Below, piece after piece: positions 33,971-35,280 of a DNA stretch of 64,000 bases (positions are counted from its first letter, which is position 1; each line of letters begins with the position of its first letter). Location: the NCBI GenBank assembly GCA_036505535.1, contig DASXTI010000179.1:4688-68687 (forward strand). Direction: 5' to 3'. The translations under genes and the position numbers were made by a program. The notes beneath the pieces were generated by a model. The model searched no databases. It was given only the letters and a program-made list of their open reading frames with translations, and had not been told where the DNA came from. This DNA is from Thermoanaerobaculia bacterium. GTDB lineage: Bacteria > Acidobacteriota > Thermoanaerobaculia > UBA5066 > Gp7-AA6.

Positions 33971-34060
33971 GAAGATTGAGGATTGAAGATTGAGGATTGA
34001 AGATTAGGCGATTGAGGTGAGACATTTCCGTGACTCCTCAATCATCAATCTTTAATCATT
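33971..34060. repeat. Heptad-repeat hairpin between dnaJ and prmA (6 x GATTGAR-type units versus CCTCAATC ATCAATC TTTAATC)
   Basis: Left arm 33971-34017 (includes GATTGAGGATTGAA x2). Right arm 34036-34060 contains the dnaJ stop codon. Confidence 0.85.
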
Positions 34061-35189
34061 CGTCTCCGAATAGCTTCTTCGCCTTCTTGAACACATTCGC
34101 CTTCTCCTTTCCGACGGGGGCGCCAATAAGGTCCGCGTACTGCCGCAAGATCTCCTTCTCCTCCTTGGACGGAGACTCCGGCACCTGAACGCCGATTCGG
34201 ACAACGAGATCCCCCCGCCCGCTCCGGCCCAGACGTCCCATGCCCTTGCCTCTCAGCCGCAATTCCGAGCCGGCGGCGGTCCCCGGCGCGACCGCGATCT
34301 GTTCGGGTCCATCGAACGTGGGGACCGAGACCTCACCCCCGAGCACGAGCGTTGGAAAGGGAAGATCGAGGGAAACGACGACATCGTCCCCCTCACGGGA
34401 GAACGCCTCGTCCTCGGCCACCGTCAGCACGACGTACAGGTCGCCGGCGGGTCCGCCGTTCGGACCCGCGTCCCCCTCGCCCGTTAGGCGCAGCCGCGAG
34501 CCCGACTCCACGCCCGCGGGGATTCGTATCGTGAGCTCCTTTTTGCCGCGCCGACGCCCCTCGCCGTGGCAGGCCCTGCAGGGTTTCTCGATGAGCCGGC
34601 CCTCCCCCTGGCAATTCGCGCAGGGGCGCGTGAGAGTGAGAAACCCCTGTGAAATGCGTTGGCGGCCGCGGCCACCGCAAGCGGGACATATTTTCGGCCG
34701 CGAGCCCGGCTCCGCACCCGTGCCGCCGCAGCTGTCGCAACGCTCAAAGCGTGAGATCGCGATCGGAGCCTCCATGCCGAACGCCGCGTCGCGAAACGAG
34801 ATCTCCATCCGATAGACGAGGTCGCTCCCCACCGGTGGTTCGCGCGCCCCGCCGAATCCGCCCCCCGACGCGAATCCGAAGAGACCGCTGAAGAGATCCG
34901 AAAAGTCGGCGAAAACGGATGGGTCGAATCCCTGGAACCCCCCGAAACCGGGGCCGTTTGCGGCAAAGGCGGCGTGACCGAAGCGGTCGTAGCGCGCCCG
35001 CTTCTCGGGATCGGAGAGAACCGCATAAGCCTCGGAGGCCTCCTTGAACTTCTCGGCGGCATCGGGATTGTTGGGGTTGCGGTCCGGGTGGTGAGTCAGC
35101 GCGAGCTTGCGATAGGCAGACTTCAGGGCCGACTCATCCGCGTCGCGGTTGACGCCCAGAATCTGGTAATAGTCGCGTCGTTCCGACAT
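34056..35189 (-). CDS. dnaJ: Molecular chaperone DnaJ
   Basis: ORF 34056..35258 trimmed to ATG 35189 ([13 protein letters not shown]...HPDRNP). G/F region and four CxxCxGxG zinc motifs. Confidence 0.95.
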
Positions 35190-35196
35190 AGAAAAA

Positions 35197-35280
35197 ATTG
35201 CCGATTGCCGATTGCCGATTGCCGATTGCCGATTGCCGATTAGGAGACCCGGTCCCAATCTTCAATCGGCAATCTTCAAT
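35197..35280. repeat. Heptad-repeat hairpin between dnaK and dnaJ (six perfect ATTGCCG copies plus a complementary arm)
   Basis: 35197-35238 is (ATTGCCG)x6. 35255-35280 reads CCAATCTTCAATCGGCAATCTTCAAT. Confidence 0.9.

Follow-up and report, generated by a model that had tools for sequence, protein, structure and literature searches.

Heptamer hairpins in a Thermoanaerobaculia heat-shock operon as probable members of a dispersed repeat family that shares its unit with PF05635 genes

The subject of this analysis is a pair of hairpins, built from tandem heptanucleotide repeats, within the heat-shock operon of a Thermoanaerobaculia bacterium (assembly GCA_036505535.1, contig DASXTI010000179.1, positions 4,688 to 68,687; this whole stretch of 64,000 nucleotides (nt) is referred to as the window, and the genome it belongs to as G000). 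All six operon genes, hrcA to rsmE, were identified with Pfam and are followed by genes for a class IV aminotransferase and a PilT-like ATPase. A CIRCE operator (controlling inverted repeat of chaperone expression) abuts hrcA on its upstream side and marks the start of the HrcA-controlled operon; an inverted repeat upstream of hrcA-grpE-dnaK-dnaJ, the hallmark of HrcA/CIRCE heat-shock operons, is thus found here. The operon is otherwise tightly packed, and both hairpins occupy intercistronic spacers. A simple terminator and promoter scan found no promoter-like site in 32300–39000. The features, in window positions, are as follows:

32441–38833, minus strand: operon body hrcA-grpE-dnaK-dnaJ-prmA-rsmE (Pfam)
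38834–38860, plus strand: CIRCE operator, TTAGCACTC-N9-GAGTGCTAA, 27 nt, 0 mismatches, chance expectation 0.01
38833–37766, minus strand: hrcA
37769–37146, minus strand: grpE
37113–35284, minus strand: dnaK, with its TAG at 35286–35284
35253–35280, minus strand: 5' arm of the dnaK-dnaJ hairpin, ATTGAAG ATTGCCG ATTGAAG ATTGGGA, beginning 3 nt past the dnaK TAG
35242–35252, minus strand: loop of the dnaK-dnaJ hairpin, CCGGGTCTCCT, 11 nt, no open reading frame (ORF)
35197–35241, minus strand: 3' arm of the dnaK-dnaJ hairpin, (AATCGGC)x6 + AAT, 6.4 copies with 100% match in Tandem Repeats Finder (TRF)
35192–35197, minus strand: T6 run, abutting the 3' arm and separated by 2 nt from the dnaJ ATG
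35189–34056, minus strand: dnaJ, with its ATG at 35189 and its TGA at 34058–34056
34037–34060, minus strand: 5' arm of the dnaJ-prmA hairpin, GATTAAA GATTGAT GATTGAG (heptamers 34057–34037), which holds the dnaJ TGA
34018–34036, minus strand: loop of the dnaJ-prmA hairpin, 19 nt, no ORF
33968–34017, minus strand: 3' arm of the dnaJ-prmA hairpin, CCTCAAT CGCCTAAT CTTCAAT CCTCAAT CTTCAAT CCTCAAT CTTCAGC, stopping 4 nt short of the prmA GTG
33963–33133, minus strand: prmA, with its GTG at 33963
about 33172–32441, minus strand: rsmE, with its TGA at 32443–32441
about 32400–32452, minus strand: third heptamer array, GAGACGC GAGACGT GAAACGT ... AAGACGC, beginning at the rsmE TGA in the rsmE-aminotransferase spacer

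Heptad hairpins at the dnaK-dnaJ and dnaJ-prmA junctions had been reported in a preliminary description, and both were recovered from the sequence, with TRF and by folding. Its six perfect ATTGCCG copies (AATCGGC on the coding strand) and their partner arm do lie between the dnaK stop and the dnaJ ATG; the perfection of the copies points to recent expansion or homogenisation. At dnaJ-prmA, array and partner arm were found as described, with one of the six units given for the long arm being an irregular 8-mer. CCTCAAT and CTTCAAT units alternate in this arm (TRF period 14, 2.6 copies, 100% match), seven units of this type following the loop. The spurious N-terminal extension that the repeats generate in the ORF track had correctly been recognised as an artefact, and annotators should disregard such repeat-encoded extensions. 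The inverted-repeat arms of the two hairpins are 23–28 nt long and 82–87% complementary, and both hairpins begin at, or no more than 3 nt from, a stop codon. As sense-strand RNA, the dnaK-dnaJ hairpin folds with −40.4 kcal/mol (z −4.4, matched by 0 of 200 shuffles), the dnaJ-prmA hairpin with −28.6 kcal/mol (z −2.3, matched by 1 of 200 shuffles); in the minimum-energy fold of the former, the base of the stem pairs the TAG region with the dnaJ ATG region. Judged as an intrinsic terminator, the dnaK-dnaJ hairpin has its U6, and its stem is long, interrupted, A/U-rich at the base and able to pair in several registers. The dnaJ-prmA hairpin has no U-tract past its stem, neither hairpin was flagged by the terminator scan, and Rfam gave no match at gathering score in the window and none at E ≤ 1 in 33900–35350.

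We regard the two operon hairpins as probably being gene-less copies of the dominant GATTGNN/NNCAATC family of this genome, to which both belong, and not a conserved device of heat-shock control. They are part of a dispersed class that avoids divergent spacers, is rapidly gained, lost and rewritten, carries a genome-specific unit and has this unit in common with the arms around a PF05635 gene elsewhere in the genome. Throughout G000 (3.6 Mb in 258 contigs, 66% GC), TRF most often reports a period of 7 (739 rows). Merging yielded 822 period-7-type arrays and at least 223 paired hairpins, the G-rich arm leading in 200 of these 223, and 47 different modal units in several families occur in this one genome. 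Gene contexts, assigned with a crude gene caller based on GC content at third codon positions (GC3) that left 54 loci unclassified, were co-directional for 100 hairpins, convergent for 41 and divergent for 13, compared with 1443, 465 and 452 background gene pairs; the class thus avoids divergent (promoter) spacers. Roughly 7% of co-directional spacers genome-wide hold a hairpin. The characteristics of the bacterial heptamer class (dispersed tandem 7-nt arrays, non-coding position, preference for aligned ORFs, proximity to stop codons) are all found here.

In the preliminary description the two hairpins were read as stepping down distal genes by partial termination or 3'-end protection, in keeping with DnaK > DnaJ > PrmA/RsmE. 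Taken as selected intra-operon attenuators that set this order, they would have the role played by internal processing and promoters in Bacillus. The heptacistronic dnaK operon of Bacillus subtilis, hrcA-grpE-dnaK-dnaJ-prmA-rsmE-mtaB, reportedly gives several transcript species, as described by Homuth et al. in 1997. It has the order of the first six genes and the CIRCE operator in common with the operon studied here, the seventh gene of which encodes the class IV aminotransferase; it is not known to contain heptamer hairpins. Several points support the attenuator reading: the anatomy, strong stems of about 21–26 bp, the U6 past the dnaK-dnaJ hairpin, the presence of an RNase III gene in this genome and published precedents for polarity. 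In Xanthomonas, heptamer repeats coincide with transcript starts or stops more frequently than control repeats do (PMC4692102); the PF05635-bearing intervening sequence of Coxiella 23S rRNA is cut out by RNase III, after which the upstream fragment exceeds the downstream one (PMC4990558), the kind of imbalance that had been proposed for the operon. An operon-specific design, in contrast, finds no support. Hairpins of the same kind, at least 223 of them, lie in hundreds of unrelated spacers. No sense-strand folding bias was found over the 100 co-directional hairpins (sense more stable in 47, antisense in 52, Wilcoxon p = 0.8), and a T-run follows the hairpin in only three of these 100.

The comparison with relatives, all of them metagenome-assembled genomes (MAGs) that are 51–100% complete, covered 23 genus members at dnaK-dnaJ (the genome of the window included) and about 21 at dnaJ-prmA. 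Gene order from hrcA to pilT is kept in 17 of 17 congeners (20 kb fetched from each). At dnaK-dnaJ, some heptamer hairpin is present in 12 of the 23, well over the genome-wide rate, as the attenuator reading would have it; the other 11 have none, and their heptamer-free spacers (37–62 nt) fold no better than shuffles (z −0.9 to +1.0), by which a conserved stem of whatever kind after dnaK is ruled out. Where hairpins occur in congeners, their units vary (GAGTCTT, GTTGAGN, GGTCGTG, GTCTGTA, GATTTGT/GATTGGT), and none of them is followed by a T6. The spacer ranges from 3 to 106 nt, the junction of G010 being TGA-CGT-TTG with 3 nt only; the related family f3 has a 6-nt spacer, and one species carries an unrelated inverted repeat. 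A heptamer hairpin at dnaJ-prmA was found in only four of the approximately 21 species; in about 17 there is none, and the junction is mostly 3–14 nt long (typically GGAG) or overlapping. On a species tree from eight concatenated proteins, at least seven changes of state are needed at dnaK-dnaJ and at least four at dnaJ-prmA. With these absences, the differences between sister species described below and the many hairpins elsewhere in the genome, the claim that the hairpins are the operon's own means of setting DnaK > DnaJ > PrmA is not supported, and we consider selected attenuators unlikely.

The sister species G010 and G011 (95% protein identity, about 94% DNA identity over 16.9 kb) have one heptamer array in common; their differences comprise both operon junctions and one further hairpin. 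An insertion in G010, a hairpin of 76 nt placed right after GTGAAT, splits the overlap of dnaJ stop and prmA start (GTGA) that is present in G011. This insertion parts prmA from its original GTG; from a GTG in the loop, the reading frame runs across the 3' arm into prmA, and the repeat may therefore now encode an N-terminal extension of PrmA. Three filled/empty comparisons between the two species, made as for miniature inverted-repeat transposable elements (MITEs), gave clean indels with no clear target-site duplication, the flanks being similar to the units. For one G010 hairpin, the "empty" counterpart in G011 keeps a single GACTACC unit. Such a remnant would suit a pure in-situ microsatellite, grown from a local seed by slippage and fold-back copying with no element, master copy or protein, as would the extension of arms in 7- and 14-nt steps with perfect copies, the dnaJ-prmA units of several species, which resemble local TGATTTCGGA/CGAAATCGG flanks, and the dnaK-dnaJ unit GAGTCTT of G019, a genome with no PF05635 gene, in which this unit occurs nowhere else. 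Slippage is also an explanation for heptamer excess cited by Rehm et al. (PMC4692102). What this mechanism does not predict is a single dominant unit per genome, the agreement of this unit with the arms of the genome's own PF05635 genes, seen in the eight genomes tested, or the position of all four PF05635 genes of G000 in hairpin loops, and we judge it improbable. Signs of inheritance were also found, namely a 16-nt hairpin centre common to G017 and G020 and GTTGAG units throughout a three-species clade; hairpins can therefore persist while their units turn over.

Other inserts were also seen. The dnaJ-prmA spacers of G004 (L008/L046) and G002 (L029) contain a different, highly structured insert of ~242 nt (ΔG −127.5 kcal/mol, z −6.4), which has long inverted repeats at its ends and may be a MITE-like element. 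At 1510–1551 of G011:C458 (L179), a 42-nt GC-rich palindromic insert (…GCCGCCGCCGGCCGGCGGCGGGC…) is present that is missing in G010; here the indel hairpin is of a second type, not built from heptamers.

Both hairpins span the distance from stop to start, and they could on these grounds be taken for a translation device that joins the two codons and couples or gates translation of dnaJ or prmA to that of the preceding gene. The pairing of the TAG with the ATG region would fit, as would the lack of a Shine-Dalgarno sequence before dnaJ. This lack, however, extends to 18 of 18 genomes, with or without a hairpin (tCC/cCT precedes the ATG instead), dnaK being preceded by GGAGG in every one of them; since the hairpin-free congeners equally lack the sequence, initiation at dnaJ is independent of the hairpin. 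Furthermore, the G010 insertion breaks an existing TGA/GTG overlap coupling, and the hairpin is not conserved. We consider a translation device very improbable.

A link between the hairpin family and PF05635 genes, which encode a small Avd-like four-helix-bundle protein of the 23S rRNA intervening-sequence type, is a further line of evidence for the view that the operon hairpins are copies of a dispersed family. All four PF05635 loci of G000 lie between a G-rich arm and a complementary arm, the unit being different each time, and the gene-bearing hairpins of this genome measure 475–602 nt:

C148, 1261–1749: PF05635 locus, arms ATTGCCG/AATCGGC
C19, 3733–4219: PF05635 locus, unit TAGTCGG
C123, 6946–7547: PF05635 locus, unit CAGGTTY
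C39, 6645–7119: PF05635 locus, unit AGACGGA, apparently broken (two fragments, internal TGA)

The 3' arm of the dnaK-dnaJ hairpin is identical in unit and phase to the arms at the PF05635 gene G000:C148:1261-1749. For 139 of the 223 short hairpins, the modal unit is no more than one mismatch away from a gene-flanking unit, the random expectation being 13%. PF05635 genes also lie in heptamer hairpins in G005 and G016 (2 of 2), and 17 of the 26 in an order-wide sample do so by strict assignment (about 21 by lenient assignment). The CAGCTNT-flanked genes (L053, L057, L063) have a first arm that is not G-rich (GCTATCA, then AGCTGAN), and this family is an exception to the rule that the G-rich arm comes first. 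The operon hairpins themselves do not have the architecture of an ORF enclosed by a long inverted repeat, their loops being 11 and 19 nt; as they contain no ORF and the same unit is gene-bearing at C148, the operon pair would be at most gene-less relatives of the PF05635-bearing element.

In seven of eight genomes, the unit flanking PF05635 is amplified specifically in its own genome; the eighth unit, GGCGTAA, is shared with two other genomes. Two-unit patterns were counted, with no more than one mismatch for the first six units and exactly for ACGGGAA and GGCGTAA:

GATTGNN, G000: 902 matches there, 31–48 in four congeners
RGTCTCA, G005: 290 there, 0–21 in other genomes tested
CAGCTNT, G016: 133 there, 5–22 in other genomes tested
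GAGTGAC, G020: 23 there, 0–3 in other genomes tested
AGTAAGC, G024: 162 there, 0–1 in other genomes tested
CGTGAAC, G077: 20 there, 0–5 in other genomes tested
ACGGGAA, G062: 114 there, 2–15 in other genomes tested
GGCGTAA, G056: 22 there, 33 in G042, 45 in G046, 0 in G044, 0 in G062

G042 and G046 have closely related GGCGKRA units at their own PF05635 copies. Several PF05635 loci are orthologous (syntenic) across genera, and the unit match holds even there, so that the arms of a single inherited locus vary in step with the family across the genome. Clades of the PF05635 protein track the unit: 15 changes suffice for 15 unit classes, a value that 0 of 500 shuffles reached (mean 21.3, minimum 17). 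At family level, PF05635 genes and heptamer arrays co-occur, the gene being present in 15 of the 36 f1 genomes, none of the 37 f2 genomes and 1 of the 7 f3 genomes, and samples of the dnaJ region containing 15 strict period-7 arrays over 334 kb in this genus, none over 176 kb in f2 and none over 125 kb in f3. The best match to the PF05635 protein in the PDB is 2GSC, XCC0516 of Xanthomonas campestris. This entry has been related to the Avd protein in a paper on diversity-generating retroelements (PMC10053308), and in the supplement of Rehm et al. a GGGAATC array of four units is listed that overlaps the start annotated for XCC0516 (PMC4692102). A search of the available literature library found no paper tying PF05635 to heptamer repeats.

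Among the long-range complementary array pairs, only PF05635 loci consist of single arms flanking a loop of 400–500 nt. A gene in the loop was rejected as a general property of the family: an HIT-family gene and dnaJ are just flanked by two full hairpins, and rpsB by single arrays. The HIT-family gene lies between two complete GATTGNN hairpins (G000:C144:11605-12095) and rpsB between complementary GACTGTC arrays, the unit of which is partly self-complementary (G000:C181:2694-3553); housekeeping genes can thus be bracketed by same-family hairpins, like dnaJ. The long arm of the dnaJ-prmA hairpin (33970–34005) is complementary in 22 of 24 positions to the short arm of the dnaK-dnaJ hairpin (35256–35280), so that the whole of dnaJ is bracketed by an inverted heptamer pair and long-range loop-out would be possible in principle.

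Two further origins were considered. A relation to repetitive extragenic palindromic (REP) elements and their associated tyrosine transposases (RAYT) was rejected, as two PF01797 (Y1 transposase) genes scored above the cut-off, neither near arrays of the hairpin families; the sole period-7 row within 4 kb of them is a CGCCGCG run. Telomerase-like break healing as the basis of the G-rich-arm-first rule was set aside in view of the 47 modal units, of several families, in one genome.

Several points weigh against reading the operon hairpins as mere copies of a PF05635-linked family. The PF05635 link is a correlation; synteny of many genes within clades makes the match of protein and unit partly a matter of common descent, the kin compared are not independent, and several hairpin-bearing congeners have no detectable PF05635 gene, an absence that, given the completeness of the MAGs, is not proof. 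The context counts, resting on the GC3-based caller and its unclassified remainder, are approximate. Occupancy of the dnaK-dnaJ junction is far above the co-directional rate, and together with the inherited hairpins this makes weak selection for a stem after dnaK conceivable; the comparison cannot separate such selection from inheritance combined with a permissive spacer. A T6 run is compositionally rare at 66% GC and might itself have been selected. The organism, finally, is uncultured, and all statements on RNA processing and termination are inferred.

With the family reading preferred, the gene-less hairpins would derive from a gene-carrying hairpin element, either by master-copy or by protein-directed spread. 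Each hairpin would put a double-stranded stem of 21–26 bp into the polycistronic transcript, and RNase III would probably cleave it. A protective stem would then remain at the 3' end of the dnaK segment, and a 5' monophosphate would mark the start of the dnaJ-prmA segment. The T6 at 35192–35197 could assist leaky termination as a U-tract or provide dnaJ with an A/U-rich leader; its hairpin is the best candidate for added leaky termination and may terminate part of the transcripts. The RNase III gene, the polarity in Coxiella and the transcript ends in Xanthomonas make a step-down of dnaJ-prmA mRNA plausible, and we give it an even chance or slightly less. Through either cleavage or termination, insertion would incidentally lower the expression of distal genes; the comparative data argue that any such effect is tolerated, and that it is not a selected, conserved device for stoichiometry.

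The closest published kin are the heptamer repeats of Xanthomonas and Nostoc. G-rich heptamers were described by Rehm et al. (2015) as GGGAATC in Xanthomonas campestris and X. axonopodis and as GGGGA(C/T)T in Nostoc PCC 7120 (PMC4692102). Like ours, these form tandem 7-nt arrays that occur genome-wide, are over-represented in non-coding DNA, prefer spacers of aligned ORFs and are depleted in divergent ones, and vary widely in length and sequence between close species at the same junctions (PMC4692102). On the coding strand they overlap stop codons or lie no more than 50 bp away; on the non-coding strand they are found upstream of ORFs (PMC4692102). This placement equals the G-rich-arm-first layout seen here. 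The array at the annotated start of XCC0516 thus adjoins a gene for a PF05635 protein; the paper draws no PF05635 link. Some of the published repeats are tandemly inverted pairs (PMC4692102); nearly all loci here are hairpin pairs. The genome studied here also differs in having many unit families at once. The ATTGCCG and GATTGAR units contain no GGG tract, so the G-quadruplex rationale, with its preference for four units (GGGNATC subtype), is inapplicable. Heptamer tandem repeats with such genomic placement are thus already published (Rehm 2015; the short tandemly repeated repetitive sequences (STRR) of cyanobacteria), and the operon hairpins are a non-G-quadruplex, hairpin-paired variant with species-specific units.

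Direct TAACTGA heptamer repeats were described by MacGregor (2015) from marine Beggiatoaceae, cyanobacteria and Bacteroidetes (PMC4679880). They resemble ours in being intergenic and often abutting start codons without a Shine-Dalgarno sequence, a translational role having been proposed for them, and differ in comprising 169 direct sets versus one indirect set and a single unit across phyla (PMC4679880). The intervening sequence in the 23S rRNA of Coxiella burnetii and Leptospira bears an ORF for S23p (PF05635) (PMC4990558). At ~430 nt, with a long stem, the PF05635 gene in the loop and a position in a transcribed region, it is comparable with our gene-bearing hairpins. In contrast, the operon hairpins are gene-less and lie in mRNA spacers instead of rRNA, RNase III cleavage here being an expectation, and heptamer-repeat arms are not reported for the intervening-sequence stems.

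REP elements and bacterial interspersed mosaic elements (BIMEs) are, like our hairpins, dispersed intergenic palindromes that follow stop codons inside operons. REP elements shield upstream mRNA from 3' exonucleases and thereby cause differential expression within an operon; the case of the malE-malF intergenic REP is said to have been reported by Newbury et al. in 1987. By analogy, our hairpins may act in a like manner. They differ in having tandem-heptamer arms in place of a 35-nt consensus palindrome, and the Y1 genes are not flanked by heptamer arrays. Heptanucleotide STRR sequences were reportedly described from cyanobacteria by Mazel et al. in 1990; they too are tandem, dispersed and intergenic heptamers with a lineage-specific unit. 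Their descriptions are mainly of direct arrays, and stop-to-start hairpins at the junctions of operons are not known among them.

The striking dnaK-dnaJ structure is consequently no evidence of regulation, as the same is found in hundreds of spacers and turns over between sister species. For heptamer repeats, STRR and the Xanthomonas GGGAATC arrays among them, both origin and function have lacked an explanation since the first description. The nesting of PF05635 genes, the unit match in eight genomes and the clade tracking lead to the testable hypothesis of a protein-linked repeat system. Tentatively, and with slightly less than even confidence, we propose that the heptamer hairpins of bacteria, the two in this operon included, are gene-less progeny or products of a hairpin element whose loop, in the full form, carries a PF05635 gene; this copy, or its arms, would set the unit that spreads through the genome. 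The same type of element would lie behind the ORF-bearing rRNA intervening sequences, Xanthomonas GGGAATC and perhaps STRR, and the hairpins would persist in operon junctions because RNase III processing makes them tolerable. Should RNase III cut at the hairpins, these would be a widespread and evolutionarily noisy source of operon polarity in soil bacteria.

The third array, at the rsmE stop, has a weak partner arm, and its unit family is that of the arms of the PF05635 gene at G000:C39:6645-7119. Five more heptamer hairpins lie in the window, at 18549–18636, 19572–19631, 24643–24718, 45601–45668 and 50039–50114; their units are GATTGNN, TTTCTGG, GTGATTT, TAGTCGG and ATTGNNG.

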